Notes under the pieces: generated by a model | What the model saw: the letters and a program-made list of their open reading frames with translations, nothing else | The model's database searches: none | Told to the model about the DNA's origin: nothing | Assembly (NCBI GenBank): GCA_002011035.2 | Contig: MTLY02000003.1 | Span: 448,001 to 512,000, forward strand | Direction of reading: 5' to 3' | DNA length: 64,000 nt | Origin: Candidatus Hecatella orcuttiae | GTDB lineage: Archaea; Thermoproteota; Bathyarchaeia; Hecatellales; Hecatellaceae | Shown here: positions 4,082 to 37,489 of the stretch, piece after piece | Layout: the number at the start of each line of letters is the position of its first letter | Position numbering within the stretch: the first letter of the stretch is position 1 | Made by a program: the position numbers and the translations under genes

Positions 4082-4141
4082 GACATCTGATGGCAGTGGG
4101 AAGCCCGGCGAAGGCTTGGAAGGCTGCCCTGAACATGTCTT

Positions 4142-4963
4142 TTACATCTTCCCCTCCATTTGGCTTTGTCTCCGCTTCAGAATCTTCAATACTTCTTGAG
4201 CTTTTTTCGGATCATAGGCGAGAAGGGTGCCCTGCGCATAGCGGGATGCCAGAAGAGCGGCCTTGGTAAGGGCTCCTGTCTCCGCTTCTTTGGCGTAGAG
4301 CCCTATGTAGAAAGGTTTCTTCAGCTTCCTCTTGAAGGCGTTGGCTAGAATTTCAACCCAGTAGAGGGTCAGATAAGTTCGGTCGTAGATGGGGACGACG
4401 AAGAAGCTGACATGGCTGGAGAGAAAGTCTAAGTCTAAACCGAACCTTTCAGGATGGAAGGGGTCTGGATAGAGGGTTACTGAGAACTCTTTGTCTGTTA
4501 GATCAGAAGCCTGCGCGACGAATTCGTTTACCACGTGCTGCCGCCATCGAACCCAGTTAAGCCCGCTCTCTCTCCATTTTCTTTTGCACTCTTCGCAGAC
4601 GCAGTATTCTTCTCCCGGAAAACCCAAGCAGTCGAGGTGGATGCCCTCTACCTCTTCGCTGGAAGTTTGCGCGATCAGCTTCAAAAGATAGGAGCGATAT
4701 TTCTCCCTACTCGGGCATATCCAGTCGCAGTAAAACCAGCCTTGCCCCTCTTTCCTTGTAGCCTTCCTTTCCTTGGAGAGGCATATCCATTCAGCGTTTT
4801 CCCGGGCCGTTTTATTGTCGCCGAAGCAGCTTATGACGTTATGCGAACGGGGAACAGGCTTGCTGACTCTGCCAGTCACGTTTTTAACATAATGGAAGTA
4901 GATGTCTCCTCCGTCAGGCCAAGCCGGCTCATCCAGCACTATTCCGATCTTTTTGCCTTCCAA
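4142..4963 (-). CDS. uncharacterised Cys-containing TIM-barrel-like (glycoside-hydrolase-like) protein
   Basis: GIHLDCLGFP and YCVCEEC segments; TTG at 4963 follows an AGGAG SD and avoids overlap with btuF (ORF track start 5044 overlaps it). Confidence 0.6.
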   Translation of the reverse strand: MEGKKIGIVLDEPAWPDGGDIYFHYVKNVTGRVSKPVPRSHNVISCFGDNKTARENAEWICLSKERKATRKEGQGWFYCDWICPSREKYRSYLLKLIAQTSSEEVEGIHLDCLGFPGEEYCVCEECKRKWRESGLNWVRWRQHVVNEFVAQASDLTDKEFSVTLYPDPFHPERFGLDLDFLSSHVSFFVVPIYDRTYLTLYWVEILANAFKRKLKKPFYIGLYAKEAETGALTKAALLASRYAQGTLLAYDPKKAQEVLKILKRRQSQMEGKM

Positions 4964-4991
4964 TTTCAACTCCTTCTGGCCACTTAGACGC

Positions 4992-5939
4992 TTACTGCTC
5001 AAACAATTCGGGGTGAATGGCTTTAGCCAAGGCTTCCAGCCCATTCACGATCCTTGGGCCCGGCCTGCTGAGAAGGTCGGGGTGAATCTGATATATCCTG
5101 TCGTTTTTCACAGCTTCTATTTCACTCCACCCGGGTCTGGCTTTAAGCTCCTCAGGCGACACCCCCGGCATGGGAGCGTCTGGAGGCGTGATGATGATCA
5201 CGTCGGGATTTCTGCTCAGCACTGTTTCCAAGCTGACTTCCGGATACTTGGTCGCGGCGTCTTCGAAGATGTTAACTCCTCCCGCCAGTTCGATGAGGCT
5301 GTGGGCGAAGGAGCCGGGCCCGGCGCTCATCAGAGGGTCATGCCAAACCTCATAGTAAACCTTCGGCCTCTCTTCTCTGGGTATAGCCTCTGTCTTCTCG
5401 GTTATGGCTGCGATCCTCTGCCTCAGCTCTTCCACAAGCTTCTCAGCAGCCTCCTCTCTCCCCGTGGCTTCTCCAACCAAAATTATGTCGTTCAGTATGT
5501 CTTCCATATCCTGCGGCGACAAGGCTATGACCGTTATGCCCAACTCCTCCAGCCGTTCTACAAATTTCTCCTGAACTCCCCCTGTAGCCAGCACCAAGTC
5601 CGGCTCTAAGCCTACCACAACTTCGATGTTGATGTTGGCGAAGCCTCCTACCTTTGGCTCTATGTCCGCTGCCTCCGGAGGATAGTCAGAGTAGGTGTCC
5701 ACTCCTACTACTTTATCCCCTAAACCTAGAGCGAAGAGTATCTCCGTGGTGCTCGGCGCCAAGGAGACTATCCTCTCCGGGGGGTAACTGGTCAATGTGA
5801 CTGTTCTCCCAAGGTCGTCGGTGACCGTGACGGGGCCGGAAGGCTGGATGGGCGTGGCATACTGCCAAAAAGCCGCTGCGACGCCTCCCACGATGACGGC
5901 TATGATCACGCCTATGAATAGGATTTTTAGGGAAGTCAT
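4992..5939 (-). CDS. btuF: cobalamin-binding protein of ABC transporter
   Basis: N-terminal membrane anchor; VTDDLGR, RIVSLAPSTTEILFALG, RPGPRI motifs; adjacent to cob genes. Confidence 0.9.
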   Translation of the reverse strand: MTSLKILFIGVIIAVIVGGVAAAFWQYATPIQPSGPVTVTDDLGRTVTLTSYPPERIVSLAPSTTEILFALGLGDKVVGVDTYSDYPPEAADIEPKVGGFANINIEVVVGLEPDLVLATGGVQEKFVERLEELGITVIALSPQDMEDILNDIILVGEATGREEAAEKLVEELRQRIAAITEKTEAIPREERPKVYYEVWHDPLMSAGPGSFAHSLIELAGGVNIFEDAATKYPEVSLETVLSRNPDVIIITPPDAPMPGVSPEELKARPGWSEIEAVKNDRIYQIHPDLLSRPGPRIVNGLEALAKAIHPELFEQ

Positions 5940-5953
5940 GGTTGAATCACTGG

Positions 5954-5970
5954 TTGGATAATCTATCCAA
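5954..5970. promoter_or_regulatory. palindromic operator candidate TTGGATA-N3-TATCCAA in the divergent btuF/cobD promoter
   Basis: Perfect 7-bp inverted repeat between the TTTATAAA box (~5974-5981) and the btuF ATG. Confidence 0.6.
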
Positions 5971-6017
5971 GACTTTATAAACCTAAATATATAAAATTTT
6001 TCTGGAAGGTAGTATCA

Positions 6018-7139
6018 TTGAAGCCTCCCTCCGAAGTAGCAAGTCTGAAACCCTGTGTGCACGGTGGAGAAATTTTTCAGGTAGCAGAGAAATACGGCCT
6101 AGACCCTAGGGAGCTCCTGGATTTCAGCGCCAACATAAACCCCTTAGGGCCTCCGCCTGAGGCCCTTGAAGCTGTTAAAGCCAGCCTGTGGGAGGTTTCC
6201 CTCTATCCTGAAACAGATTCCGCGGCGCTTCGAAGGGCCCTAGCCCAGCATGTGGGCGGCCTGACCTCCGAAAACGTCATCTTAGGCAATGGTTCCACGG
6301 AGCTTATCCACCTTTTCGCTCAAGTTTTTCTGAGAAAAGGCAGCAGAGCGGTTATCCCCTCTCCTACCTTTGGGGAGTATGAAGCCGCTGTCCTGAAGGC
6401 TGGAGGTAAACCCGTTTTCGTAGAAGCGGGGGAAGATTTTTCTTTCCAAGTCGACAAGATTTTGGGGAAGGTGGATTCCCGAACTGTTATGGTTTTTTTG
6501 TGCAACCCCAACAACCCTACCGGAGCCCTCATGCCTGCGGAAGAGTTGATAAGCCTCATCGAAAAAGCGGAGGAGAAGGGCATCCTAGTCTTCTTGGATG
6601 AAGACTGCATGGATTTCGTGGAAGACGGGAAGCGTTTCTCCCTGTCAGGGAATGTGGAAAAACATCCTAACCTCTTCACTTTAAGGTCCTTCACCAAGTT
6701 CTACGGTATGCCCGGCCTTCGAATAGGCTACGGGTTTGCCTCCAAAAAAATCATCGAACCCATGTTGGGGTTGAAGATACCTTGGAACGTTAACTGCTTA
6801 GCTCAAGCCGCAGCTCTTCAAGCTTTAAAGGCTCAAGATTACCCGCGGAAGACTAGGGAGCTCATTCAAAAAGAAAGACTTTTTCTGATGGAGGAGCTTA
6901 AAGGTTTCAACAACCTGAGAGTCTACCCCACGGAAGCCAACTTCATTCTCATCGACATAGAGGGCTCAGGTTTAACAGCAGCGCAGCTTAAAGAAAAAAT
7001 GTTGAGACAAGGTATCCTGATCAGGGACTGCAGCTCCTTCCGAGGTTTAAGCAGCCGCCACGTTCGAGTGGCGGTGAGAAGTCGGAGGGAAAACCTGAGG
7101 CTGCTGGAAGCCCTCCGAAAGGTGTTGAAAAACCCATGA
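6018..7139 (+). CDS. cobD: L-threonine-O-3-phosphate decarboxylase
   Basis: HGG, LDFSANINPLG, CNPNNPTG, RSFTKFYGMPGLRIGY (PLP lysine); cob context. Confidence 0.88.
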   Translation: MKPPSEVASLKPCVHGGEIFQVAEKYGLDPRELLDFSANINPLGPPPEALEAVKASLWEVSLYPETDSAALRRALAQHVGGLTSENVILGNGSTELIHLFAQVFLRKGSRAVIPSPTFGEYEAAVLKAGGKPVFVEAGEDFSFQVDKILGKVDSRTVMVFLCNPNNPTGALMPAEELISLIEKAEEKGILVFLDEDCMDFVEDGKRFSLSGNVEKHPNLFTLRSFTKFYGMPGLRIGYGFASKKIIEPMLGLKIPWNVNCLAQAAALQALKAQDYPRKTRELIQKERLFLMEELKGFNNLRVYPTEANFILIDIEGSGLTAAQLKEKMLRQGILIRDCSSFRGLSSRHVRVAVRSRRENLRLLEALRKVLKNP

Positions 7140-7489
7140 GGCCTATGGGCAGGGATTACGTGGAAGAAACCATCCGGTCAGGGAAGCTCAGAGGCCCTGA
7201 CAGGACCTGCCCCTATTATCCCTGCCACAGGGAAGGCCATGACTGCACATGGTGTTTCTGTCCCTTCTACCCCTGCTTGGACGAGTCCAAGGGAGGCCTA
7301 TGGGTGAAAAATAGCCAGACAGGGAAAACCGTCTGGAGCTGCAAAGGCTGCGAATGGATTCATGAGCCTAAAATCGCTGAACGAGTGCTCGCCGAGCTGT
7401 TAAAGGTGAGAAACAAGCCCGGGGCCCCCAACCGCAGCCAGCTGCTTCGAATTTTAAGGCGAATCTCAGAGGAGGATCGGGGAAAATGA
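7136..7489 (+). CDS. cysteine-rich small domain (zf-like) protein associated with cobalamin genes
   Basis: CPYYPCH...CTWCFCPFYPC...WSCKGCEWIH; ATGA overlaps with both neighbours. Confidence 0.8.
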   Translation: MRPMGRDYVEETIRSGKLRGPDRTCPYYPCHREGHDCTWCFCPFYPCLDESKGGLWVKNSQTGKTVWSCKGCEWIHEPKIAERVLAELLKVRNKPGAPNRSQLLRILRRISEEDRGK

Positions 7490-9033
7490 AGGCCAAAACG
7501 TTGATGGTTCAAGGAACTTCCTCCCACTGCGGTAAAACCTTGCTGGTCGCCGCTTTCTGCAGGATCTTTTCCGACGCCGGCTATAGGGTGGCACCCTTCA
7601 AAGCTCAGAACATGTCCCTGAACTCCTTTGTCACCGAGGACGGAGCTGAAATCGCTCGGGCTCAGGCACTCCAAGCCTTCGCCGGCGAGGTTAAACCCTC
7701 CGCGGACATGAACCCCATCCTGCTCAAGCCCAAAGGCGACATGACCTCTCAGATAGTCTTCCACGGCAAGCCCTACAGGGATATGGGGGTTGAAGAATAC
7801 TACAGGGATTTCGCCCTCACCAAAGGCTGGGAAGGCGTCCAAGCCTCCTTCAACCGGCTGGCTTCTGAATACGATTTGGTTCTCATCGAAGGGGCGGGGA
7901 GCCCTGCGGAGATTAACCTCTACGAAGTGGACATCGCCAACATGCGCACCGCGGAGGCCGTGGGAGCGCCTGTCCTGCTGGTTGCCGACATCGACCGAGG
8001 CGGCGTCTTCGCCAACTTGGTAGGCACCATGGAGCTTCTTAAGCCTCGCCACCGGAAACTGGTCAGAGGCTTCATCATCAACAAGTTCCGAGGCCATCTG
8101 AGCCTCTTGGAGAAAGGCCTGAAGCAGCTGGAAGCCCTCACAGGGAAGCCTGTGCTGGGGGTTCTCCCTTACATCCCCGGCCTGCTGCTGCCGGGGGAAG
8201 ACTCCGTTTCCCTAGAAGAAACCCGCCCTTCAGCTTCCCCAGTGTTGGACATCGCCGTCATCAGGCTGCCTAGGATATCCAACTTCACCGACTTCGACCC
8301 TCTCCAACTGGAGCCGGGGGTTCAGGTTCGCTACGTGGAATGCGCTGAGGCCTTGGGTAAGCCTGACGCCATCATTCTCCCGGGGACGAAGAACACCGTT
8401 CAAGACCTCCTCTGGCTGCGAAGCTCCGGGTTAGCCGCTGAGATCATTCGAAGGGCGTTGGAGGACCATACCCCTATCCTAGGAATCTGCGGAGGCTACC
8501 AGATGCTGGGAAAACGCGTCGTCGACGAAAAAGGAATCGAAGGCGGGTCTTCCACATGCGTGGAAGGTTTAGGCCTCTTGGACGTGGTCACCGAGTTCGG
8601 AGCGTACGCTAAGACAACCCGGCAGGTTTCGGCTCAGGTGGTGGGAGACGGCCCTCTGCTGGGGGCGGTTAAGGGTGAAAGCTTTTCCGGATACGAAATC
8701 CACATGGGCACCACCCATCTGGGGAAAGACGTTCAGCCGGCTTTCCGAATAACCCGGTTGGGTAAAAAGCCTGCGCGAAGGCTGGAAGGCGTCACCGACA
8801 GGCGGGGGCTAGTCATCGGAACCTACATCCACGGCCTTTTCGACGCGCCCCCCATCCGGAAAGCCTTCCTCACCTATCTATCCTCCCGGAAAGGCGCTGT
8901 CTTCAACCGGTTTAGGGGAAGCGTCTGGAAAGCTTGGCAGCGGGACCTAGAAAAGCTAGCCCAAACCGTTAAAAACCATGTGGACATGGACAAAGTCTGC
9001 GAAATAGTGGGACTGCCTCCCCTCGGCGGCTGA
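7486..9033 (+). CDS. cobQ: adenosylcobyric acid synthase (CbiP/CobQ)
   Basis: QGTSSHCGKT, PFKAQNMSLNS, EGAGSPAEINL, GICGGYQMLG, GTYIHG. Confidence 0.95.
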   Translation: MKAKTLMVQGTSSHCGKTLLVAAFCRIFSDAGYRVAPFKAQNMSLNSFVTEDGAEIARAQALQAFAGEVKPSADMNPILLKPKGDMTSQIVFHGKPYRDMGVEEYYRDFALTKGWEGVQASFNRLASEYDLVLIEGAGSPAEINLYEVDIANMRTAEAVGAPVLLVADIDRGGVFANLVGTMELLKPRHRKLVRGFIINKFRGHLSLLEKGLKQLEALTGKPVLGVLPYIPGLLLPGEDSVSLEETRPSASPVLDIAVIRLPRISNFTDFDPLQLEPGVQVRYVECAEALGKPDAIILPGTKNTVQDLLWLRSSGLAAEIIRRALEDHTPILGICGGYQMLGKRVVDEKGIEGGSSTCVEGLGLLDVVTEFGAYAKTTRQVSAQVVGDGPLLGAVKGESFSGYEIHMGTTHLGKDVQPAFRITRLGKKPARRLEGVTDRRGLVIGTYIHGLFDAPPIRKAFLTYLSSRKGAVFNRFRGSVWKAWQRDLEKLAQTVKNHVDMDKVCEIVGLPPLGG

Positions 9034-9038
9034 AGAAC

Positions 9039-10007
9039 ATGGCCTCCCCTGGAACTCTACCGTTGGGTGTTCCTCTCGGAATATTAGCCTTAGCCCTACT
9101 GGTCGACTACGTGTTCGGGGAGCCTCCTGCTAGGTTTCACCCCACTGTTTGGATGGGAAAATTCGCAGCGGCCTTAGAGCCCAAACTGGGAGGTAGAAGT
9201 CCCCGTGTTGAAAAGCTGGGAGGCGTTTTCTTAGCCCTAGCCTGTCCTCTTCTGTTCGCGGTTCCGGTTTTTTTCGCCCTAGCCTTGGCCAAACACCATC
9301 TCGGCTTAGCAGCCTACACGGTGGCGGCGGCTGTCCTCCTCAAACTCACCTTCGCCATCAAAGCCATGGAAGAACATGCCTTTCCCATAGCTGAAGCATT
9401 GAGGCGGAGGAAGCTGGGGGAAGCGAGGCGCTTGGTCTCGCGGATTGTGGGCAGGGATACAGCGGAGCTTAACGAGGAGCAGGTCATATCCGCCGCCGTC
9501 GAGTCGGTGGGAGAAAGCACCGTAGACGGGGTGGTGGCACCTCTGTTCTACTTCGCCCTCCTAGGCGTGCCCGCCGCCGTTGCCTACAGGGCTGTTAACA
9601 CCTTGGATTCGATGGTGGGCTACAGGAACTACAAGTACGCTAACCTAGGCTTTTTTCCCGCCAGGTTGGACGCTTGGGCTAACTGGTGCCCGGCGAGGCT
9701 GACAGGGTTTCTGATGGTCTTAGCCGCCGGGCTTCTGGGGGAGGATTGGCGGAAGGCCTTGGAAACCCTGCGGAGGGACAGAAGCAGAACTCCCAGCATC
9801 AACGCAGGCTGGCCTCTTTCCGCCATGGCTGGAGCCTTGGGTGTTAGGTTGGAGAAGCCGGGCTTCTACGCCCTCGGCGACGGAGCCAGCCCTCTTAAAC
9901 CAGAGCATATTTTCAGGTCTCTCCGCATTATGAAGCTAACCGCCTACCTCTTCATCGGGTTGGTGGTTATCCCCGTTGCTGTGGGAATTATCACAGTCAT
10001 AGGGTGA
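9039..10007 (+). CDS. cbiB: adenosylcobinamide-phosphate synthase
   Basis: HPTVWMG, IVGRDT, NTLDSMVGY, NWCPARL; membrane protein. Confidence 0.93.
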   Translation: MASPGTLPLGVPLGILALALLVDYVFGEPPARFHPTVWMGKFAAALEPKLGGRSPRVEKLGGVFLALACPLLFAVPVFFALALAKHHLGLAAYTVAAAVLLKLTFAIKAMEEHAFPIAEALRRRKLGEARRLVSRIVGRDTAELNEEQVISAAVESVGESTVDGVVAPLFYFALLGVPAAVAYRAVNTLDSMVGYRNYKYANLGFFPARLDAWANWCPARLTGFLMVLAAGLLGEDWRKALETLRRDRSRTPSINAGWPLSAMAGALGVRLEKPGFYALGDGASPLKPEHIFRSLRIMKLTAYLFIGLVVIPVAVGIITVIG

Positions 10008-11161
10008 AACGGATGAAAAAACCCGTGAAGTTCGAAGGAAAAACTCCCATCGAAGATGTGAGATGCCGCCTTGAAAAAGGCACCCTCATCCTAGAGTCTA
10101 AACGGCTGCTCACCGTCCTAAGCTCAGCTGTTTTAAACGGGGGAATCCGCAAGGCCAAAGCCATCATCAACCACCACGTCCCCAAAAACTTCCACTACAA
10201 GAAACCCGGAGAATTCCTCAGAAAAGTAGCTGGGCGGCTGAATCTACCGGAGCCCGTGGTGGGTTTGATGACTGCGGCTGACGTGAGAAAAGCCGCTACC
10301 ATAACTCACAGAAGCCGAGAGCTCACCGTCTACGCCTTGGTCACCGCTGGGCTTTCCAACCCCGCCACGGCAGGCGACAGACCCGTTAACCCAGCGGCTT
10401 CCGGCACCATCAACATCATCCTCCTCGTCGACGGCAACCTCAGCGAAGGCTGCATGGTGGGAGTGGTGAAAACAGCCACAGAAGCCAAGGCTGTGGCGTT
10501 GAGGGAGCTGGATGTGAGAAGCCAATATTCAGGCCAGCTGGCCAGCGGAACCACCAGCGACGCCTTGGCAGTCGCCCACACGGGGCGAGGGGCCCTCATC
10601 GAATATGCGGGAACCGCCACAAAGCTCGGTGAACTGGTAGGCCGGTCGGTCAAGTTGGCTGTGAAGGAGGCAGTCCTAAGGCAGAACGGCCTCGTCCCCC
10701 ACCGCCCCCTCATCCAAAGGCTTAAAGAAAGAGGAATCACCCTCAACCGCCTAGTTCAAACAGCCATGAGGCTCTGCGTTCACCATCCCAGCATGGGGTC
10801 TAAGGAGCGAATAAGAAAGATCTTAGAAGAAGGCTTCGACAAAGCCCTAGCCGACGTGAACGTGGCCGCCTTGGTGATGGCGGGGCTGAGGCTTGAAGAA
10901 GAAGGCAGCCTCAGCCTCCTCCCCGGCATGCCGGGGGAAATCTTCCGGGAAGACCCGGTAAACCTGTTGGCAGACGAAATCTTAGGAATGGCCATCAGCA
11001 ACTACATTGCCGGAAGTAAGGGAGTCTTCGAATTCGTCCGCTTCGACAAGGCTAAACCCGGCGTTCTCGGAAAGCTGGGGCCTTTCTCCGACGACGCCAT
11101 AGGCGGCCTCGTAGCCGGCGTCTCGTCGAACATGTACACGGCTCTCCTAGGAAGGAAATGA
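10004..11161 (+). CDS. cbiS: bifunctional adenosylcobinamide amidohydrolase / alpha-ribazole-phosphate phosphatase (CbiZ-CobZ fusion, CbiS type)
   Basis: N-half: LSSAVLNGG, GLMTAA, GTINI, TATEAK, SGTTSD (CbiZ). C-half: DPVNLLADEILG...FDKAKPG...DDAIGG (CobZ). Confidence 0.85.
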   Translation: MKRMKKPVKFEGKTPIEDVRCRLEKGTLILESKRLLTVLSSAVLNGGIRKAKAIINHHVPKNFHYKKPGEFLRKVAGRLNLPEPVVGLMTAADVRKAATITHRSRELTVYALVTAGLSNPATAGDRPVNPAASGTINIILLVDGNLSEGCMVGVVKTATEAKAVALRELDVRSQYSGQLASGTTSDALAVAHTGRGALIEYAGTATKLGELVGRSVKLAVKEAVLRQNGLVPHRPLIQRLKERGITLNRLVQTAMRLCVHHPSMGSKERIRKILEEGFDKALADVNVAALVMAGLRLEEEGSLSLLPGMPGEIFREDPVNLLADEILGMAISNYIAGSKGVFEFVRFDKAKPGVLGKLGPFSDDAIGGLVAGVSSNMYTALLGRK

Positions 11162-11167
11162 AACCCC

Positions 11168-11923
11168 ATGGAATGGTTGAAGGCGATAAGGGACATCTTC
11201 GGCTTCTTCACCGTCATCCCTGTTAAAACAGACTCGCAATCTCTAAACCGAACCGCCAGCTACATGTTCCTATCCCCTCTGGCAGGCGGCTTCATCGGCC
11301 TTTCAGCCGGTCTCCTCGCATGGGCTCTGTTTCATGCCATTCCCCCTCTCCTCGTAGGGATGGTAACAATGGGGTTCATCCTTTTGCTCACAGGCCTCCA
11401 CCATACCGACGGACTGCTGGACTTCGGAGACGGCTTGATGGCCCAAGGCTCTTGGGAGCGCAAACTCCAAGTCATGCACGACCGTCAAACCGGTACAGGG
11501 GGACTGGTCCTAGGTCTCGTCGTCATCCTGATTACCGCCTTCGCTATCTCTGAACTAGGCTTAGAGGCGCTGCGGGGCTTAGTTGCGGCTGAAGTCTCAG
11601 CTAAACTCTCCATGGTAGTGGGCACTTGGGCCGGCAGACCGGCTCATGAGGGTTTAAGCAGCCTCTTCATCAAAGCCATGCATGGGCGCGGCCGGAAACT
11701 TCGCTTGGCAGGAGGTCTACTCCTATCCTCTGGTATAGCCTTCCCCCTTCTTGGAGGAAGAGGTCTGCTCCTCTTGGCCGCCGGGATCATCACAGCCCTC
11801 GTATTGGTGGCGGTTTCGAACAGAAACTTCGGAGGCATAACCGGCGATGTGCTTGGGGCCTCCAACGACCTCGCACGTATGACTTCCCTCCTAACTTTCC
11901 TCGTCGTGACTCCATGGATTTGA
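11168..11923 (+). CDS. cobS: adenosylcobinamide-GDP ribazoletransferase
   Basis: FFTVIP, TGLHHTDGLLDFGDG, GGITGDVLGA motifs. Confidence 0.93.
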   Translation: MEWLKAIRDIFGFFTVIPVKTDSQSLNRTASYMFLSPLAGGFIGLSAGLLAWALFHAIPPLLVGMVTMGFILLLTGLHHTDGLLDFGDGLMAQGSWERKLQVMHDRQTGTGGLVLGLVVILITAFAISELGLEALRGLVAAEVSAKLSMVVGTWAGRPAHEGLSSLFIKAMHGRGRKLRLAGGLLLSSGIAFPLLGGRGLLLLAAGIITALVLVAVSNRNFGGITGDVLGASNDLARMTSLLTFLVVTPWI

Positions 11924-22960: not shown

Positions 22961-23383
22961 ATGGTGGAAAAAACCTTCGCCATACTAAAACCTGAAACCG
23001 TTGCCCGAGGCCTCGTCGGAGAGGTTCTTCGGCGGATTGAGCAAGAGGGCTTCAGAATCTGCGCCGCCAAACTCGTCAAGGCTACTGAGAAGCAGGCGGA
23101 AAAACTGTACGAGATGCACGTGGGAAAACCCTTCTACAAGGAACTTTTAAGCCACATCACCTCCGGGCCCATCTTCGTCATGGTGGTGGAAGGGGAAAGT
23201 GCTGTGCAAAGACTCAGAGCCTTGGTGGGAGCGACCAACCCTGCGGAGGCTGAGAAGGGAACCATCCGGGGAGACTACGGGTTAACCGTCACTAAGAACG
23301 CCATCCACGCTGCGGACAGTCAGGAAAACGCTAGGAGAGAGACGGCTATCTTCTTCGCTCCGGAAGAAATCCTAGACCTTTAA
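22961..23383 (+). CDS. ndk: nucleoside diphosphate kinase
   Basis: TFAILKP, GATNP, GTIRGD, NAIHAADS (catalytic His). Confidence 0.96.
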   Translation: MVEKTFAILKPETVARGLVGEVLRRIEQEGFRICAAKLVKATEKQAEKLYEMHVGKPFYKELLSHITSGPIFVMVVEGESAVQRLRALVGATNPAEAEKGTIRGDYGLTVTKNAIHAADSQENARRETAIFFAPEEILDL

Positions 23384-23512
23384 CAAACCTTCCGACTTGT
23401 AAAAATTACATCTCACCTAAAATGCTGGGTTCATCGCCCACCGGCAGCGACACTTTAATAGGAGCGATTTTTTAAATTTTAATAGACCTCATCACCGAGA
23501 TGTTGGTTCACC

Positions 23513-23824
23513 GTGTTTTCCAGCGCCTTTAAGCGTACACTTTGGTGGATGATAGCCGGAACGAGGGGAGGGGTAACCCGGGGAAAAATAATCCTCGCCT
23601 TGAAGGAGAGGCCTTTGAACGCCAATCAGCTGGCTGAGCTTCTTCAACTACACTACAGGGCTATCCGCTTCCATCTGGAACTGCTGGTTGACAACAACAT
23701 CCTCACCAATGCTGGGGGTAAATACGGGGCGGTTTATTTTCTTTCCCCAGAGATTGAGTCAAACTGGGAGCTCTTCAAGGAAATATGGAATCGCCTCCAA
23801 AGGATAGATAAAAAGAAAGGGTGA
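23513..23824 (+). CDS. ArsR-like winged-helix transcriptional regulator
   Basis: LWWMIAGTRGG..R..II..L..RP.NANQLA..L...Y..IR.HL..L; KYGAVYFLS wing. Confidence 0.85.
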   Translation: MFSSAFKRTLWWMIAGTRGGVTRGKIILALKERPLNANQLAELLQLHYRAIRFHLELLVDNNILTNAGGKYGAVYFLSPEIESNWELFKEIWNRLQRIDKKKG

Positions 23825-23859
23825 ATCAACGTATAAGACATCAGGAAGGTTGAACAGAT

Positions 23860-24111
23860 ATGACTTTAGAGAGTGGTGTGCATATAGTTTCTCATATTGT
23901 TCAAATAACCATCACCCTGATAATTATCTACTATTTCATTCAAAATTATAGGGCCATAAGGTCAAGGTTTAACTTAGGTCTCATTCTCTTCGCCGTGGCC
24001 ATGTTGTTTCAGATTGTTTTCGCTTGGTCTTTGCACATCCCTCTCCATCTTCTGTCGGAAACGTTTGAGATAGCGGCGCTTTTGATCTTTTTAAGCCTTA
24101 TAAGACGGTGA
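23860..24111 (+). CDS. small 3-TM membrane protein paired with the regulator
   Basis: 83 aa, three hydrophobic helices, co-oriented with the HTH gene; SD-like AGGAAGG. Confidence 0.75.
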   Translation: MTLESGVHIVSHIVQITITLIIIYYFIQNYRAIRSRFNLGLILFAVAMLFQIVFAWSLHIPLHLLSETFEIAALLIFLSLIRR

Positions 24112-24140
24112 AAACGCCTTCCCATCAGGTCAGCGTGTAT

Positions 24141-24221
24141 ATGTCTATATAGTTAAAATATTGTATAGACGTAAAAGCTAAATATCTTGAATTTATAATT
24201 AATTTGTAACAAATTTATAAT
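24141..24221. promoter_or_regulatory. AT-rich promoter with an inverted repeat and three phased direct repeats
   Basis: ATGTCTATA...TATAGACGT inverted repeat at 24141-24172; AATTT(A/G)TAA(T/C) at 24190, 24201 and 24212 (11-bp period). Confidence 0.55.
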
Positions 24222-24234
24222 AGATGGATGACAT

Positions 24235-25089
24235 TTGAGCGACAGCCCTGCGGAAATACCTCCCGCCTCCGAAACAGCAAAACCTTCCCCGCTTAGGATG
24301 ATGGCAGAAGCCTTAAAGCTACATCGCCAAGGGAAGCCTTTGGCTAAGGATGATGTAATCTCCCTCTTCTTCTCGATGGCTGATTATGTGCACAAAGCTT
24401 GGAAGGCAGGCCTCAGTAAAAGAAGCGAATGCGCCTATGCAGGTTCTCTGCTTCTCTACGAGACGCTGAAAAGGACAGGCTTCCGATTTGCCTCCGACGT
24501 GGAGGATGCCAATCGAATCTGGAAAGCTGGAATGAAGCTGGCGGAGGAAATTTGGAACAAGCTTGAATCTTCCAGGAATAACCCGCTCTCGGGTGAAGGT
24601 CTGAGCTTTAAGGAGGAAATCCAAGCCATGTCCTCTCTACTCTGGGAGGAATACCAAAAGGTAGCTAACCCTCCTGCAGGTCAAGTGGAAGGAAAAGGAT
24701 TGACTGAAGTTTTCAGAAAGGCGGTTGAATACGTCGAAGCTGGAAAAAAGGAGGGGCTTCAAGAACATCAGATCCAGATGCAGTTACCTGAGTTTAGACA
24801 TGGACGATTCCGCGTAAACAGAGTTTACAGTTTCGACCCTCTTATCCTGGGAATGCATCTGAACGATGAGGCAAGACTCAGGTTTAATCCAAAGGTCAAA
24901 AAAACCGTGGAGGATTTCGCAGCTAGGCGGGGTTTAAGGTTTCAACCCTCAAGCTTTGACATCTACCTTCTCAAGGGAGAGAAGAAGGTGGCTTGGCTTA
25001 GGGAGGATTTCTTTGGGGCGTCAACCCCGGAGCTTTTTGAGGAGATAGGCCGCATAATCTACGGCTCAGCCCTCAGGGATGATGAATGA
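24235..25089 (+). CDS. hypothetical soluble protein
   Basis: 284-aa ORF; its stop overlaps the next start (ATGA), so it is translationally coupled; no recognisable motif. Confidence 0.7.
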   Translation: MSDSPAEIPPASETAKPSPLRMMAEALKLHRQGKPLAKDDVISLFFSMADYVHKAWKAGLSKRSECAYAGSLLLYETLKRTGFRFASDVEDANRIWKAGMKLAEEIWNKLESSRNNPLSGEGLSFKEEIQAMSSLLWEEYQKVANPPAGQVEGKGLTEVFRKAVEYVEAGKKEGLQEHQIQMQLPEFRHGRFRVNRVYSFDPLILGMHLNDEARLRFNPKVKKTVEDFAARRGLRFQPSSFDIYLLKGEKKVAWLREDFFGASTPELFEEIGRIIYGSALRDDE

Positions 25090-27059
25090 AGAAAAATCAT
25101 CTGCTGTCCGTCGCCGTAATCGTCATCGCCTTGGTTATTCTTGGTTACGCCCTACCGGTAACAGGGCGGATGAGCGAAATAATCCTAACAGTCGAAGAAG
25201 AATCCGGCCGGCTGGCTGAAGCTGATTCTTCACCCAAGATCATAGAGATCACCGCGAAAAGGTTCACCTTCGAACCCAACATCATTCACGTAAAGCTGGG
25301 AGAGGAGGTAATCTTCAGGATAAAGAGCGCGGATGTCACCCACGGATTCTACATCGACGGCTACGATTACTTCGTAACCATCCCCCCGGGAGAAGTCGTG
25401 GATGTGGGGCCGATAATTTTCGACGGACCGGGTAAATTGAAGATAAGATGCGCGATAACGTGCGGGCCTCTGCATCCATTCATGGTTGCGGACATACTCG
25501 TGGAGCCCAATTATGTTTTCCCAGCCTTCATCTTCTTAACGTTAGGCATGTTCGGGGCCACCACTCTCTACATCAGCCGAGGGCCCAGTAACCGAATGCT
25601 GGGAGTTCCCCTTGACAAGGATGTTGACTTGCTGAGGGTTAAGATCGTAGGGCCTATTTTGAAGAAGATTCTCCAATGGAGGGGTATCCACTTTGCACTC
25701 ATCTGGCCAAACCTTCTGATCTTTATGATCGTCTTAACAACAGCATTCTTCGGTAATCCAACAGGAAACAAGAACTTCTCCATAGCGGTAGTCTGGATAC
25801 TTTGGTTTGCCGCTGTTGAATTTATGATACTCTTTGCTGGAAGACTATGGTGCACTGTCTGTCCTCTACCGGCTTTCGGAGAATGGCTTGCAAGAAGAAG
25901 ACTTTACGGTGTTCACAGTCTGAGAAAGTGGCTGTCTTTGGGAAAAAAGTGGCCTAAAAGCTTGAACAACATGTGGATACCGGCCTTCGGTTTCTTAGGA
26001 ATATCTCTCATCGTTCCTTGGCTTGTCACAAGACCCGTAGTGACCGGGTTTTTGTTCCTCATACTTATAGTGCTCCCTTTGATTCTACATCCAATTTTTA
26101 CCCGGAGATATTTCTGTCGCTCTGTCTGTCCGGCGGGCGGATACATAGGCCATCATTCTAACGCTTCGATCCTCGCTATTAGATGCCGGAATAAAACTGT
26201 CTGCGATAAGCATGTGGCTAAAGAGTGTATCGGTGGAAGTCCCAAAGGCTACGGTTGCCCTTGGGTGCTCTATCCGGGTGGCAACGACCAGAACACCTAC
26301 TGCGGTCAGTGTTTTGAATGCCTCAAATCTTGTCCCTTAGACAATATGACGCTGAAGCTGAGGATGATAGGCCAAGACCTAGCTAACCTAGCAACCAAAG
26401 CCAAGGACAAGTTTGATGAGGCGTGGATGGATTTCATCAGATTTACCTTGGTCATCACTTACCAGCTGGTCTTTTTCGGCCCCTACTTCTGGTTTAAAGA
26501 CTGGGGTAACATGGGGAATATCTTCGGAGCTAACCTGGCCACCATAGGACTTCTCACACCTTCTTTCCAAGGACTGAGCAACTGGTTCGGATGGGCGGTG
26601 ATAGTGGGTGGCACTGCATTAGTAGGCTATCCTGCCCTGTTCTACGCCTTCTCTTGGCTGGCGAAGAAGACTGCCGGCGATGTTGAACACGCACCTAAAC
26701 AAGTCTTCCTCTCTTTCAGCTACGCCTTGACTCCCTACAGCCTGTTCCTTTGGCTGGCATTCGCCATCACCCTCGTAACCGTTAACTGGGCATATCCCCT
26801 AACGGCTTTTTCCGATCCTCTGGGGTGGGGTTGGAATCTGCTGGGAACCCGGTTTGCATGGAGACCAATCCTTCCGGATTTTCTGCCCTACTTCCAGCTA
26901 CCGATTGTTCTTGTAGGGCTAGCTTTGGCGGTGAACAGCACCTACAACATCGCTGTGAGACTCTTCGGCGACCACGCTAAGGCTCTGAGAGCATCAACGG
27001 TCATGGGTGTTTTGCACACCCTTGCCGCCTTGGTTTTCATCTGGATTATATCGGGGTGA
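25086..27059 (+). CDS. CuA-type cupredoxin fused to a multi-TM 4Fe-4S polyferredoxin (NapH/NosR/CcoG/FtrD-like)
   Basis: Signal/anchor; DVTHGF...CAITCGPLHPFM (CuA); WCTVCP and FCRSVCP; CGQCFECLKSCP; roughly 10 or more TM helices. Confidence 0.85.
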   Translation: MKKNHLLSVAVIVIALVILGYALPVTGRMSEIILTVEEESGRLAEADSSPKIIEITAKRFTFEPNIIHVKLGEEVIFRIKSADVTHGFYIDGYDYFVTIPPGEVVDVGPIIFDGPGKLKIRCAITCGPLHPFMVADILVEPNYVFPAFIFLTLGMFGATTLYISRGPSNRMLGVPLDKDVDLLRVKIVGPILKKILQWRGIHFALIWPNLLIFMIVLTTAFFGNPTGNKNFSIAVVWILWFAAVEFMILFAGRLWCTVCPLPAFGEWLARRRLYGVHSLRKWLSLGKKWPKSLNNMWIPAFGFLGISLIVPWLVTRPVVTGFLFLILIVLPLILHPIFTRRYFCRSVCPAGGYIGHHSNASILAIRCRNKTVCDKHVAKECIGGSPKGYGCPWVLYPGGNDQNTYCGQCFECLKSCPLDNMTLKLRMIGQDLANLATKAKDKFDEAWMDFIRFTLVITYQLVFFGPYFWFKDWGNMGNIFGANLATIGLLTPSFQGLSNWFGWAVIVGGTALVGYPALFYAFSWLAKKTAGDVEHAPKQVFLSFSYALTPYSLFLWLAFAITLVTVNWAYPLTAFSDPLGWGWNLLGTRFAWRPILPDFLPYFQLPIVLVGLALAVNSTYNIAVRLFGDHAKALRASTVMGVLHTLAALVFIWIISG

Positions 27060-27463
27060 ATGAAGTGATGAAGAAAACTGTACTGTTGTGGGAAAGCATT
27101 GCATTGCTCTTGGTAGTCGTCGCTGTGGCCGCGTTTTTCCTTCCTTTGGCAGATGGGATTTTCATGCCGAGGGAGCCGGACGAGATTGTGGTAAGGATGA
27201 GCATCAAGGAAAGCGGAGGCTTCGACCCCGAAGTCATAACCGTGAAGAAAGGGCAGACTGTCCGGTTGGTCCTCATAAGCATGGATGTTTCCCACGGCTT
27301 CACTGTCGAAGGCCTTGACATCGACGTGAAGATTGTTAATCCGGAAAAGAAGGTGGTGGTGGAGTTCACACCTGAGGAAGAGGGAGTCTACATGTTTAAA
27401 TGTACAGTTCAATGCAGCCCCCTCCACCACTACATGAGGGGACTGTTCATAGTGGAGGGTTAG
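27056..27463 (+). CDS. membrane-anchored CuA-type cupredoxin (COX2/NosZ C-terminal-like)
   Basis: N-terminal TM; GFDPEVITVKKGQTV, DVSHGF, CTVQCSPLHHYM. Confidence 0.88.
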   Translation: MNEVMKKTVLLWESIALLLVVVAVAAFFLPLADGIFMPREPDEIVVRMSIKESGGFDPEVITVKKGQTVRLVLISMDVSHGFTVEGLDIDVKIVNPEKKVVVEFTPEEEGVYMFKCTVQCSPLHHYMRGLFIVEG

Positions 27464-27465
27464 AG

Positions 27466-27993
27466 ATGAAAAACAGCGTCTTAGCTCGGTTGTTGAAATT
27501 TCCGCCTTTGGTTTTCTTTCTTCTCCTGATCCTAAGCTTCACCGCCTTCCAAGGATACGTTTCACTTGTAGGAGTGGGGGAAGCGGAAGAGTTTCCACAC
27601 ATGGAACCGATAGTCACGACGGATAGCGAAACCTATTCCAGAGACTCTTTTGTGTACATCCACGTCAAGGTCAGTACGCATCCTCATGAGCATGTCCATG
27701 AGGAGGAGGCTGTGGTAGAGGAGCATGTCCATGAGGAGGAGGCTGTGGTAGAGGAGCATGTCCATGAGGAGGAGGCTGTTTTTGAAGGAGCTGAAGTTAT
27801 CCTCATCATCTACGACCCAGAAGGTAACGTGTTTGCAGACCTGAGAGGAATAACCAATCAAGATGGAGAGATGATGTTTGAGGTTTACATAGGAGCTGAT
27901 GACCCGACCGGCATCTACACTATCATCCCTGAAGCCAGCTTCAAAGGCTCACCTATCGTGATAGGGGAAACAGCCTATTTTAGAGTGACTTGA
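27466..27993 (+). CDS. secreted or anchored Ig/MG2-like protein with His/Glu-rich repeat insertion
   Basis: ATG 27466 two bases after the cupredoxin stop; hydrophobic N-terminus; TTDSETY...IYDPEG...DPTGIYTI beta-sandwich pattern; EHVHEEEAVVE repeats. Confidence 0.75.
   Translation: MKNSVLARLLKFPPLVFFLLLILSFTAFQGYVSLVGVGEAEEFPHMEPIVTTDSETYSRDSFVYIHVKVSTHPHEHVHEEEAVVEEHVHEEEAVVEEHVHEEEAVFEGAEVILIIYDPEGNVFADLRGITNQDGEMMFEVYIGADDPTGIYTIIPEASFKGSPIVIGETAYFRVT
27688..27779 (+). repeat. 33-bp coding tandem repeat, about 2.8 copies (EHVHEEEAVVE)
   Basis: gagcatgtccatgaggaggaggctgtggtagag at 27688 and 27721; partial third copy at 27754. Confidence 0.95.
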
Positions 27994-28068
27994 GAAAGGC
28001 TGAAAAGCAGTTTTTCTCAGATGATTTCTCCTTTAACCCCGCGAAATATTTTTTCGGCAGAAAATCTG

Positions 28069-30099
28069 TTAGAGCACTAAGAGAAGAGGCGCTGCCACTA
28101 TCAAGGGAGCGAAGATCACCGACAGCATGTTGATGGCTTTAATCATAGGGTTAATGGCCGGACCTGCTGTGTCCTTGAAGGGGTCGCCCACCGTGTCCCC
28201 TATGACTGTGGCCGCGTGGGTTGGCGACCGCTTTCCTCCCAGCTTTCCTGTTTCCACGTATTTCTTGGCATTGTCCCAAGCTCCGCCGCCGTTGGCCATG
28301 AAGAGAGCTAAAGCCAGCCCGGTTACGATGGCGCCGATGAGCAAGCCGCCTAAAGCTTCAGCGCCCAATATGAAGCCTACTAGGATGGGTGACAGAACGG
28401 CTAAAAGGCCGGGGAGAGCCATCCCCCTCAAGGCGGTGCGGACGCTTATGTCTACGCATCGGCCGTAGTTCGGTTTGGCTTTTCCCTCCATGATGCCTGC
28501 AATCTCCCTAAACTGCCTTCGGACCTCCTCCACCATTCGGAAGGCACCCTTGCCCACGCCTTTGAGGCAGAGGGATGAGAAAATGAAAGTGATCCCTCCA
28601 CCCAGCAGCAAACCTACCAGCACCCTAGCGTCCATGATGTTGATGACGGGATTGTCCAAGGAAATACCGCCGCCGAACTTGGCGACTTCTAGGACGTAGG
28701 CGAAGAGAAGGGATAAAGCCGCCAGCCCCGCTGAGCCGATGGCGAAGACCTTGGTTAAAGCCTTGGTGGTGTTGCCCACGGCGTCCAAGGCGTCGGTGAC
28801 CTCCCTCACCTCGGGGGACAGTTCAGCCATTTCTGCTATTCCCCCTGCGTTGTCCACGATGGGACCGTAGGCGTCTACGGAGACGATTATCCCCGCGACG
28901 GAAAGCATGGACATGGCGGCTATGGCCACGCCGTAGAAGCCCACCACACCTCCCCCGGCTAGGAAGTAGGCGGCTATGACGCCTCCGCAGATGACGAGGA
29001 TGGGGAGGATGGTGCTTTCCATGGCGTTGGCCAAGCCTGAGATGATGTTGATTCCCGGCCCTGCTTGGGAGGCCTCCGCAACCTTGCGCACAGGGCTGTG
29101 CTCGTAGGAAGTATAATAGTCGGTTAGAAGAGCCAGGAGAACCACGATCACCACGCCTACGATAGTTGTGTAGAAGATTCCCATGCCCATCCCGGTGTAG
29201 ACGGTCAGAATGTAGAATCCGGCGATGGATACGGCCACTGTGACAGCTATCCCTTGGAGAATGGCTGAAGTAGGACTCCCAGTCTTCCTGATTCTCACAA
29301 AAAAAGTGCCGACGATGGTGGCGAAAATGGCAACAGCTCCCAAAAGCAGCGGATAGGTAACCCTCTGAGCGTTGAAGACCGGAAAAGCCCCCAAAAGCAT
29401 GGCTCCGATGATGGTCACAGCGTAGGTTTCGAAGAGATCCGCAGCCATCCCGGCCACATCCCCCACGTTGTCCCCCACGGCGTCGGCTATCACCGCCGGG
29501 TTTCGAGGGTCATCCTCCGGTATCCCCGCCTCCACCTTCCCCACCAAGTCCGCTCCCACGTCGGCGGATTTGGTGTAGATTCCTCCCCCTATCCTGGCAA
29601 AGAGGGCTACAAGGCTTCCTCCGAAGCCGAAGCCTGCGAAGAGAATAGGGTCGGTCCAGAGGAAGTAGAAGACGGTCACGCCCATCAAGGCTAATCCCAC
29701 CATGAACAAGCCCATCACAGCTCCGCCTTTGAAGGCTACCCGCAACGCAGCGCCTATGCCCCTGTGGGCAGCGTTGGCCGTTCGGACGTTGGCCTTGACG
29801 GCCACGTTCATGCCTAGGTAGCCCGCTAAGGCGGAAAGACAGGCTCCTGCGATGAAGGAAACCCCGGTGTTCCAGTTGATGGCTAGACCCAGCACCACAC
29901 CTACGATGACCATGAGGGTTAGCAATGCGCGGTATTGCCTGCTGAGGTAGGCTTGAGCTCCTTCCCTGATAGCCTCGTAGATTTCCCTCATCCGAGGGTT
30001 CCCCAGTTCCTCTTTTAGGATGCTCCAGACGAGGTAGCCGACGAAACCTAAGGCGGCGAGAGAAGCCATAGGCGCGATTATAATAGGCTCCATGGTCAC
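28069..30099 (-). CDS. hppA: membrane-bound H+-translocating pyrophosphatase, predicted K+-independent
   Basis: GGGIYTKSADVGADLVGKVEAGIPEDDPRN, DNAGG, GNTTKA (Lys variant), GDTVGDPFKDT. Confidence 0.95.
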   Translation of the reverse strand: MTMEPIIIAPMASLAALGFVGYLVWSILKEELGNPRMREIYEAIREGAQAYLSRQYRALLTLMVIVGVVLGLAINWNTGVSFIAGACLSALAGYLGMNVAVKANVRTANAAHRGIGAALRVAFKGGAVMGLFMVGLALMGVTVFYFLWTDPILFAGFGFGGSLVALFARIGGGIYTKSADVGADLVGKVEAGIPEDDPRNPAVIADAVGDNVGDVAGMAADLFETYAVTIIGAMLLGAFPVFNAQRVTYPLLLGAVAIFATIVGTFFVRIRKTGSPTSAILQGIAVTVAVSIAGFYILTVYTGMGMGIFYTTIVGVVIVVLLALLTDYYTSYEHSPVRKVAEASQAGPGINIISGLANAMESTILPILVICGGVIAAYFLAGGGVVGFYGVAIAAMSMLSVAGIIVSVDAYGPIVDNAGGIAEMAELSPEVREVTDALDAVGNTTKALTKVFAIGSAGLAALSLLFAYVLEVAKFGGGISLDNPVINIMDARVLVGLLLGGGITFIFSSLCLKGVGKGAFRMVEEVRRQFREIAGIMEGKAKPNYGRCVDISVRTALRGMALPGLLAVLSPILVGFILGAEALGGLLIGAIVTGLALALFMANGGGAWDNAKKYVETGKLGGKRSPTHAATVIGDTVGDPFKDTAGPAINPMIKAINMLSVIFAPLIVAAPLLLVL

Positions 30100-36691: not shown

Positions 36692-37489
36692 GTGCCCATG
36701 CAGCTTTTCAGTGTAAAGACCCCTCTAATCCGCCCCAAAGATAACCTTGTGGATATTCTACTTCGCAGCGTGAAGAAGCAGGGCTTAAAGCTTCAGGAGG
36801 GAGACATCCTAGCGATATCTTCAAAGGTTCTCTCCTACGCGGAAGGCCGGGTGATTCGTATTGATGAAAAGCCTGCTTCCAAGGCGGCTAGAAAACTGGC
36901 GGAAAAATATTCTCTGGAGCCGGGGTTCGTGGAGTTGGTCATGGGAGAGGCGGAGGAGGTGTACGGAGGCGTCTACAGGGCGCTTCTCACCTTGAAGGAC
37001 TCCCTTCTCCTACCCAACGCGGGCATCGACCATAAGAATGCTCCTCGAGGCCACGTTGTCCTTCTCCCTTCAAACCCGCAAAGGGCTGCGGAGAGGATCA
37101 GAGGCGAGCTTTTCCTTCGAACCGGTAAAAAAGTGGGGGTTCTCATCGTGGACAGTCACACCCTTCCCTTAAGGCTGGGGATCACAGGAATAGCCTTAGG
37201 GGTCGCTGGATTTAACGCCGTGGAAGACTGCCGAGGGAAACTGGACCTTTACGGTAAGCCTCTACTGATCACCCGGACGGCTGTGGCTGACAGTCTAGCC
37301 TCCGCCGCCAACCTGCTGATGGGAGAGACAGGAGAGCGAACTCCCGCGGTCATCATTCGGGGGGCGCCCGTTACCCTCAGGGAGAAAGCGAACGTGAGGG
37401 AAACTCACATCAGCCCGAAAGAATGCCTTTACTTCAAAAGCTTCAAGCTGAAGCAGTATTACAAGAAGCGAAGCCGCCGGAAGGGCTGA
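36692..37489 (+). CDS. cofE: CofE-family gamma-glutamyl ligase (F420-0:glutamate ligase / FolC2-like)
   Basis: SSKVLS.AEG, PNAGIDHKN, IVDS..P.R.G, MGETGERTP. Confidence 0.85.
   Translation: MPMQLFSVKTPLIRPKDNLVDILLRSVKKQGLKLQEGDILAISSKVLSYAEGRVIRIDEKPASKAARKLAEKYSLEPGFVELVMGEAEEVYGGVYRALLTLKDSLLLPNAGIDHKNAPRGHVVLLPSNPQRAAERIRGELFLRTGKKVGVLIVDSHTLPLRLGITGIALGVAGFNAVEDCRGKLDLYGKPLLITRTAVADSLASAANLLMGETGERTPAVIIRGAPVTLREKANVRETHISPKECLYFKSFKLKQYYKKRSRRKG

Follow-up and report, generated by a model that had tools for sequence, protein, structure and literature searches.

A stand-alone copy of the cupredoxin/NapH-like/cupredoxin module in the archaeon Candidatus Hecatella orcuttiae

Gene clusters that place a NapH homolog between two proteins of the oxidase subunit II type are in print for the archaea Archaeoglobus fulgidus and Methanoperedens. 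Here we describe a copy of this module in a 64,000-nucleotide stretch of the genome of Candidatus Hecatella orcuttiae (contig MTLY02000003.1, positions 448,001 to 512,000), which as a whole is referred to as the window. The module is widespread and already known from genomics, as sequence and as transcripts, and the window copy is a further case of it, not a new kind. By analogy with NapGH, it is probably a dehydrogenase of quinol (or ferredoxin), with two CuA cupredoxins in the place of NapG delivering electrons to enzymes in the periplasm. Part of its interest is that two CuA-type proteins and an iron-sulfur (Fe-S) membrane protein occur together without a catalytic subunit, and that this combination is common.

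In A. fulgidus, the genes AF0141-AF0144 are up-regulated on CO plus sulfate and were described by Hocking in 2015 as a "nitrate reductase-like respiratory complex"; AF0143 is a NapH homolog with nine transmembrane (TM) helices, encoded between two Cu-binding subunit II genes, and nosZ adjoins the homologs of Ferroglobus (PMC4543118). The nar operon of Methanoperedens has the order NarG-H-J-Orf7-HCOII-NapH-HCOII (Arshad 2015, PMC4683180; Berger 2017, PMC5690323). All of these genes are highly transcribed, and the 9-TM NapH has five extra helices at its C terminus (PMC4683180); the account of the operon is repeated in a 2026 paper (PMC13079737). The NapH homologs of anaerobic methanotrophic archaea (ANME) were considered quinol or methanophenazine oxidizers (Chadwick 2022, PMC9012536), and FtrABCD is an iron uptake system (PMC11966278). 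The module is thus the proposed electron route for the nitrate reductase of the methane-oxidizing Methanoperedens and is responsive to CO in Archaeoglobus. An earlier interpretation of the window, made from the letters alone and called here the sequence-only reading, had presented the arrangement as undescribed; the unit was already in print, as AF0141-AF0144 (PMC4543118) and as HCOII-NapH-HCOII (PMC4683180, PMC5690323). No biochemical study of the cupredoxin/NapH-like/cupredoxin unit was found in the literature searched.

Two CuA-type cupredoxins and a NapH-like membrane protein

Textbook accounts restrict the binuclear copper center CuA to oxidase subunit II, NosZ, and a few nitric oxide reductases. 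In the window, CuA-type domains are encoded by two adjacent genes on the plus strand. The first gene (25086-27059) specifies a fusion protein of 657 amino acids (aa) with matches to Fer4_5, Cupredoxin_1, NapH/MauN, the NosZ C terminus, and CoxB. Residues 1-143 (25086-25514) comprise an N-terminal anchor helix and a CuA-type cupredoxin predicted to face outward (type A, or cupredoxin A), while residues 144-657 (25515-27059) form a NapH-like polyferredoxin. The second gene (27056-27463) encodes a membrane-anchored CuA-type cupredoxin of 135 aa (type B, or cupredoxin B), matched by Cupredoxin_1 (E 5.8e-11) and COX2 (E 3.9e-6), with a PF00116 score of 27.2 bits against a cut-off of 22. The fused domain reached only 17.9 bits with Cupredoxin_1, under the cut-off of 27.

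As the sequence-only reading had recognized, both cupredoxins carry the full CuA ligand set H...CxxxCxxxHxxM, at H86/C122/C126/H130/M133 in the fusion and at H80/C116/C120/H124/M127 in the 135-aa protein. All CuA ligands of the latter are in register with those of subunit II of the Thermus thermophilus ba3 oxidase in an alignment, and the fusion cupredoxin (model residues 47-141) superimposes on the same subunit (1ehk_B) with Z 14.1 and a root-mean-square deviation (rmsd) of 1.3 A over 94 residues, at 36% identity; Foldseek matched it to CuA domains with E 8e-7. Because the set is complete in 65 of the 77 fused homologs and in 86 of the 101 free cupredoxins of related loci, it is not there by chance. 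A binuclear mixed-valence CuA center is presumed to form in both cupredoxins. Nine to ten fused homologs (P0033, P0043, P0044, P0048-P0052, P0056), several of them labeled Archaeoglobaceae, read H-D-C-N-D/E instead, suggesting that the scaffold holds another kind of metal site in these proteins. In cupredoxin B, Glu13 at the start of the anchor helix is invariant in 20 of 20 aligned sequences, archaeal as well as bacterial, and may touch the membrane subunit. The window cupredoxins are also matched by the CuA part of the NCBIfam family "lactonase-type NosZ."

The NapH-like part has ten predicted helices after the cupredoxin, five of them beyond the NapH core. Its cysteines are arranged as C256xxC259P (256-260), as C344xxxC348P (344-349), and in an Fe-S domain with the canonical C406xxC409xxC412xxxC416P (406-417) and an irregular site of C373, C381, and C391; an outer loop holds the conserved motif DPxGWGWN. 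The fusion was matched by Fer4_5 with E 2.4e-6 and by the napH model TIGR02163 with E 4.8e-7. Neither a CcoG family nor a FixG_C domain was listed for it at E<=0.1 in Pfam or NCBIfam, Fer4_5 being common to both proteins. An AlphaFold2 (AF2) model of the fusion had a pLDDT of 80.3 and a pTM of 0.84, and structure searches with it (Foldseek, VIA-align) matched the cupredoxin part only. Lysine and arginine (K/R) are abundant in loops 166-198 and 257-296 and in the Fe-S domain (338-442), but not in the cupredoxin or in loops 223-230, 465-493, and 577-596. By the positive-inside rule, this distribution would place the CxxCP, CxxxCP, and four-cysteine sites in the cytoplasm, as in NapH, and the CuA domain outside. 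Across the 77 fused homologs, the cysteines of the Fe-S sites and of the CxxCP/CxxxCP motifs vary little or not at all, and no histidine is conserved in the membrane helices.

Relatives and their neighbors

More than 120 close homologs of the fusion were found, and relatives of the module are present in at least 533 species genomes (533 of the 600 pattern matches, in contigs from one genome per species), spread over Chloroflexota, Thermodesulfobacteriota, Acidobacteriota, Archaeoglobi, Thermoplasmatota, Hadarchaeota, and Nitrososphaerota. A survey of module neighborhoods, which the sequence-only reading had proposed, was run on 80 related loci that were kept, with genes called crudely as longest open reading frames (ORFs). 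The three-part unit recurs in these loci in the order cupredoxin A (motif CxxxCGxLHPFM), NapH-like, cupredoxin B, in some cases together with periplasmic enzymes, and 22 of the 71 called genes encode cupredoxin A and the membrane protein as one fused chain. An apparent fusion of the NapH-like protein to cupredoxin B in six loci was rejected as an artifact of ORF calling. In a relative of the same class as the host (G016), a NapH-like gene with 39% identity to a second copy in the host genome, described below, has no CuA motif in any frame within 20 kb (L122; C8:4000-23900), so the extended NapH-like core also occurs without cupredoxins.

The bacterial form of cupredoxin B is longer, with about 330 aa. 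A CxxCH motif is present in 36 of the 39 long (>=250 aa) type-B forms, and in three of three long proteins examined the C-terminal domain is CcoP/c550-like. A cytochrome c fused in this way is the architecture of caa3 subunit II, which favors electron transfer over copper carriage.

Enzymes adjoin the module in several loci. For example, a Hadarchaeota locus (L024) has NarG-like, NarH-like, and NarJ-like genes, a small upstream gene, the fusion, and cupredoxin B on one strand; L044 has NosR and NosZ next to the module, L070 an EB_dh protein, and L085 a molybdopterin enzyme together with the Fe-S subunit belonging to it; six further loci (L041, L062, L071, L077, L083, and L094) have c-type cytochromes. 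To describe large neighbors, 96 ORFs of at least 300 aa located at most 5 kb from the NapH-like gene were annotated, 11 of 107 being left out, among them the L024 NarG/NarH genes known by BLAST; most of the remaining ones are unrelated housekeeping genes. In a metagenome-assembled genome (MAG) of the Nitrososphaerales, a fused module is immediately preceded by genes for a 417-aa lactonase-type seven-bladed propeller (L023:6960-8213) and a thioredoxin-like protein.

The small neighbors bear on the foremost alternative, a role in copper homeostasis, in which the cupredoxins would carry Cu(I)/Cu(II) like CupA or CopI, the polyferredoxin would reduce or oxidize copper like CcoG, and a His/Glu-repeat protein encoded in the window operon would act as a copper sponge. 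The PCYCGC protein (PF13798), for whose function no report was found in the literature searched, is a neighbor in 31 of the 80 loci, an HMA P-type ATPase in 14, and YHS in 6, so that at least one of the three is found in 35. An HMA ATPase and an ArsR-type metalloregulator (NF033788, E 1.3e-26) are encoded upstream of the operon in the nearest relative (L021), and ArsR-like genes stand beside both module copies of the host. Also in favor are the fold likeness of the fusion cupredoxin to the copper chaperone CupA (4f2e, Z 12.8), weak CopI matches (E 0.009-0.03), the His-rich repeat, and the fact that CcoG is a Fer4_5-type cupric reductase. We nevertheless consider this reading unlikely. What is conserved is the binuclear CuA set and not the Cys/Met set of CupA, bacterial cupredoxin B is fused to a cytochrome c, and the module is operonic with NXR/Nar-type enzymes and adjoins NosZ. 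The remaining gene company meets needs of CuA assembly itself: an SCO1/SenC gene (E 3.6e-29) lies within the operon of one member of the window's clade (L029), thioredoxin-like genes are neighbors in 8 loci and DsbD_TM in 7 (one or the other in 13), and the ATPases possibly belong here too. Finally, the copper genes are scarce in archaeal loci (1 of 9 each), and the winged helix-turn-helix (wHTH) regulator of the window has no cysteine. Other frequent neighbors are LuxR-type response regulators (26 loci; two-component regulators in 31) and DUF1573 (18 loci).

Host genome and the path of electrons

The host genome (1.75 Mb, 97% complete) holds a second, split copy of the module on the minus strand of another contig (C2:160547-169209; L007:547-9209). 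The genes there encode, in this order, a cupredoxin, a NapH-like protein 44% identical to that of the window, a cupredoxin, a 160-aa Cys-containing ORF, a NarG-like protein with a twin-arginine translocation (Tat) signal, a NarH-like protein, and a NarJ-like protein. Along its whole length, the alpha subunit aligns with Kuenenia NxrA (7b04_B), scoring 1133 bits. Searches of the genome, 97% complete, yielded no cytochrome b (PF00033), no multicopper oxidase, and no EB_dh; with no heme b (EB_dh) subunit recognized, the copper module is the only operonic redox partner of this NXR/Nar-type enzyme. The same Tat-exported molybdoenzyme is the sole evident candidate in the genome for an enzyme served by the window copy. 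An 866-aa HMA ATPase is encoded at C2:152 kb.

The sequence-only reading had pictured a cytochrome-free operon without a partner in a likely anaerobic archaeon. For the locus this holds: CxxCH is absent from all six proteins of the island that contains the operon, and no oxidase subunit I, NosZ propeller, or FTR1 is encoded there. The genome as a whole does not fit the picture, with a COX1, CcmF/CcmC, an unlinked FTR1, and the second module copy with its molybdoenzyme.

The favored mechanism, that of a dehydrogenase feeding periplasmic enzymes, is modeled on NapGH and NosGH. The membrane subunit would exchange electrons with the quinone pool, and its cytoplasmic Fe-S clusters may draw electrons from a cytoplasmic donor such as ferredoxin. 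Electrons would then pass to the outward-facing CuA of cupredoxin A, from there to the CuA of cupredoxin B, and on to an extracytoplasmic enzyme, so that the CuA pair would stand where NapG or cytochrome c does in bacteria. By the same analogy, quinol is the presumed donor and outward the presumed direction of flow. Cupredoxin A, the NapH-like protein, and cupredoxin B would form one complex, with synteny pointing to the binding of cupredoxin B. An electron-transfer role, which the sequence-only reading had also put forward, remains the best reading of the locus.

Several observations weigh against this mechanism. The fusion scored only 29.5 bits with TIGR02163 (cut-off 213) and 25.3 with PRK09477 (cut-off 234); scores so far under the family cut-offs make quinol oxidation an analogy and not a matter of family membership, and by its sequence the membrane part is related to NapH proper without being a member. 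The Fe-S clusters are predicted to be cytoplasmic and no membrane heme ligands are conserved, so fixed cofactors do not explain how electrons would reach the outer CuA. The "transmembrane conduit" of the sequence-only reading therefore does not stand in its strict sense, the Fe-S cysteines lying in K/R-rich loops with no conserved membrane His and no fixed chain of cofactors visible; quinone is the likely link across the membrane. Part of the CuA set is missing in 12 of the 77 fused homologs, from which it follows that CuA is not obligatory in the family. NarG-like genes were found in only 2 of the 80 loci, most of which have no terminal enzyme within reach, and the NapH-like gene itself was missed by the ORF calls in 11. 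The frequent PCYCGC, two-component regulator, and HMA ATPase genes can be read in terms of copper homeostasis, and no enzyme adjoins the window copy, the remaining genes of the window being housekeeping genes. A look for RNA runs that contain this stretch found none.

A bolder proposal, to which we give little credence, is that the module is a heme-free copper "complex III substitute," a self-sufficient quinol (or ferredoxin):CuA oxidoreductase that would conserve energy and wire the membrane to any outer acceptor at hand. In stand-alone copies, cupredoxin B, aided by the His/Glu-repeat protein, would then be the terminal site, reducing extracellular Cu(II) or Fe(III) or a small oxidant. If true, cytochrome-poor archaea would have a respiratory exit of a new kind.

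Very unlikely, in our view, is a third possibility, namely that the module is the electron entry to the heme-copper oxidase of the host, again as a copper-based substitute for complex III. The genome search suggested in the sequence-only reading did recover an oxidase (C2:54521-56588; L008:6522-8588), with a single COX1 (207 bits; C2:55013-56476). In the subunit II encoded upstream of COX1, CuA ligands are replaced: Tyr takes the place of the first His and Ser...Ser that of the two Cys, with the later His and the Met retained. No cytochrome b was found, and the Rieske proteins amount to two small ORFs (126 and 135 aa), which together with the altered subunit II could leave a role for an external donor. 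A subunit II without CuA is, however, the usual state of quinol oxidases, which need no donor protein. The oxidase is unlinked and on a contig other than that of the island, with nothing tying it to the operon, and no oxidase subunit I was seen among the 96 annotated large neighbors of relatives. To our knowledge, A. fulgidus has no heme-copper oxidase while carrying the module, which also counts against this possibility. The search for a NosZ catalytic domain was negative: no CuZ propeller was found in the genome, TIGR04246 having matched only by its positions 480-578 (the CuA part), in five places and never over the cut-off. Of what would have refuted the sequence-only reading, a cognate oxidase or a NosZ encoded elsewhere, only half was seen, in the form of this unlinked oxidase.

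Least probable, and close to refuted, is an Ftr-like uptake of ferrous iron, with the cupredoxin oxidizing Fe(II) like FtrB and the polyferredoxin taking the electron like FtrD: the type of pairing is the same and FtrB (8vuk_A) is a fold neighbor of the fusion cupredoxin (Z 13.4), but the identity to FtrB is 9%, a tblastn search of the 80 related loci (1.12 Mb) gave no FTR1, none lies in the window locus, and the one FTR1 of the host (C2:435735-436529) has unrelated neighbors. With FTR1 in 0 of 80 loci, and with copper genes near bacterial relatives that fit CuA maturation at least as well, the Cu/Fe uptake module considered in the sequence-only reading is not borne out.

Pointers for testing the dehydrogenase mechanism are the cytochrome c fused in bacteria, the CuA-assembly genes that travel with the module, and the NXR/Nar enzyme whose only operonic partner is the module, while compact stand-alone copies such as that of the window are good material for expression.

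Accessory genes, origin of the island, and comparison with known systems

In the window, the module belongs to an island of about 4.7 kb (23384-28068) that contains all six genes, each where the sequence-only reading had placed it: the wHTH gene, a 3-TM gene, and the tight four-gene operon. Coupling within the operon is close, with 4-nt overlaps at 25086-25089 and 27056-27059. On the left, the island borders on ndk (22961-23383, plus strand; PF00334, E 1.8e-53), as had been stated. Its direct right neighbor is not infB, as had been thought, but a minus-strand gene for an H+-translocating pyrophosphatase (28069-30099; PF03030, E 2.2e-257), beyond which infB begins at 30212.

The wHTH regulator (23513-23824, plus strand) is only weakly ArsR/SmtB-like (HTH_5/ArsR, E 3.8e-5; NF033788, E 3.3e-5, with a score under the curated cut-off). 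It has two His and no Cys, and hence no obvious metal site. It is paired with an 83-aa membrane protein of three helices (23860-24111, plus strand) for which no Pfam or NCBIfam family was found. A pair of wHTH and small TM genes is also present beside the operon of the nearest relative (L021), with weak similarity (E 0.004 and 0.06). The AT-rich spacer that follows (24112-24234, plus strand) contains, as read from the sequence, TATA-like runs and is probably the promoter of the four-gene operon.

The operon opens with a soluble protein of 284 aa (24235-25089, plus strand). It had been listed as an unknown soluble protein, which is still correct in that neither Pfam nor NCBIfam has a family for it and ESM Atlas gave no usable match. 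It is not a single unknown, being a fusion of two unrelated small families, as 47 library matches (E<=0.001) fell into two non-overlapping sets that cover residues 16-145 or 156-280. The first domain (residues ~16-145) corresponds to a family of ~130 aa whose genes immediately precede the module in the closest archaeal clade (aligned to genes of L021, L022, L024, and L029); this small upstream gene is confined to that 7-row clade, being present in 4 of the 80 loci. The second domain (residues 156-280; window 24700-25089) has 47.5% identity to a free-standing 125-aa paralog at C3:200206-200571. About 17 library representatives begin with this C-terminal domain, and ten relatives of the two domains had nothing in Pfam.

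The last gene of the operon (27466-27993, plus strand; ORF from 27400) encodes a membrane-anchored protein with His/Glu repeats; it lacks Cys, its C-terminal part is beta-rich, and it had no family match in Pfam or NCBIfam. The ATG at 27466, two bases past the preceding stop, is its likelier start. Three tandem 33-nt units (27688-27786, plus strand) encode EHVHEEEAVVE. The anchor resembles that of a third cupredoxin encoded in the same position in two relatives, L029 (E 4e-7) and L022 (E 4e-5). The single-sequence fold of the protein was poor (pLDDT 57).

The window copy is an acquired insertion. In 4 of 9 same-family loci, ndk and the H+-pyrophosphatase gene are separated by a gap of 66-90 bp and the island is absent, and none of 13 same-family genomes had a strong match to the fusion. 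The G+C content of the island is 47.8%, against 53-55% in the flanks; flanking direct repeats were not found around it. In a quick maximum-likelihood tree of 71 rows, with SH-aLRT support only, the window copy falls in a 7-row archaeal clade (SH-aLRT 100) together with an Archaeoglobus MAG, which is the nearest row (75% identity), Methanomassiliicoccales (two rows), Thermoplasmatota, Nitrososphaerales, and Hadarchaeota, while the copy on C2 lies outside. Family absence, G+C content, and tree together indicate that the island was acquired and that the two copies of the host are not recent duplicates.

Elsewhere in the window, a cluster for cobalamin salvage and late synthesis (CobD aminotransferase-like, CobQ, CbiB, CbiZ, CobS; 6018-11923) stands beside an iron/cobalamin-type ABC importer (1711-5939), the two spanning 1711-11923. 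F420 genes are represented by a CofE-like gene (36692-37489) and CofD (62362-63327). A plus-strand run at 46475-55167 consists of ORFs of 1141, 233, 191, 193, 237, and 294 aa without a Pfam family at E<=1e-8, broken by one ORF with a glucodextranase-B-like domain and then an AAA ATPase.

Among known systems, FtrB/FtrD has in common with the module the pairing of a cupredoxin with a membrane polyferredoxin, and differs in that FtrB lacks the CuA cysteines. CcoG is likewise a membrane polyferredoxin, acting on copper. Unlike FtrABCD, the module has no FTR1 in its locus; P19 was not seen there either, no family-model search for P19 having been made. With Thermus ba3 subunit II (1ehk_B/2cua) and NosZ, the module shares the fold and all CuA ligand positions. 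In contrast to both, it has no subunit I or CuZ propeller attached or adjacent, and its two CuA domains go with an Fe-S membrane protein. The NapGH, NosGH, and NosR systems show the same Fer4_5 core, including its pair of Cys-Pro motifs and the 4Fe-4S sites on the cytoplasmic side, and are tied to periplasmic N-oxide reductases; the module differs from them in having no NapG/NosG ferredoxin and no flavin mononucleotide (FMN) domain, five extra helices, and copper proteins as its outer partners.

Closest in context, above all to the C2 copy, is the Methanoperedens operon, whose HCOII-NapH-HCOII part is proposed to anchor a Tat-exported NarGH in the membrane and to serve as its electron route. 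Judged by the published description and not by a protein alignment, it has the same 9-helix NapH homolog with five helices beyond the core, two single-anchor subunit II-like proteins flanking it, and no NapG. The window copy differs from it in having no NarGHJ/Orf7, in the fusion of its first cupredoxin, and in its extra genes for a soluble upstream protein and a His-rich protein. The A. fulgidus cluster is an orthologous unit that, like the window copy, stands alone and has no adjacent reductase. The homologs of the fusion include A. fulgidus proteins of 623, 469, and 153 aa (E 3e-139, 42% identity over 92% of the query), and the record of strain DSM 4304 lists the first cupredoxin apart from the NapH-like protein, in contrast to the fusion of the window. 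From the synteny in the Archaeoglobus MAG, AF0141 would be the counterpart of the upstream gene of the window operon.

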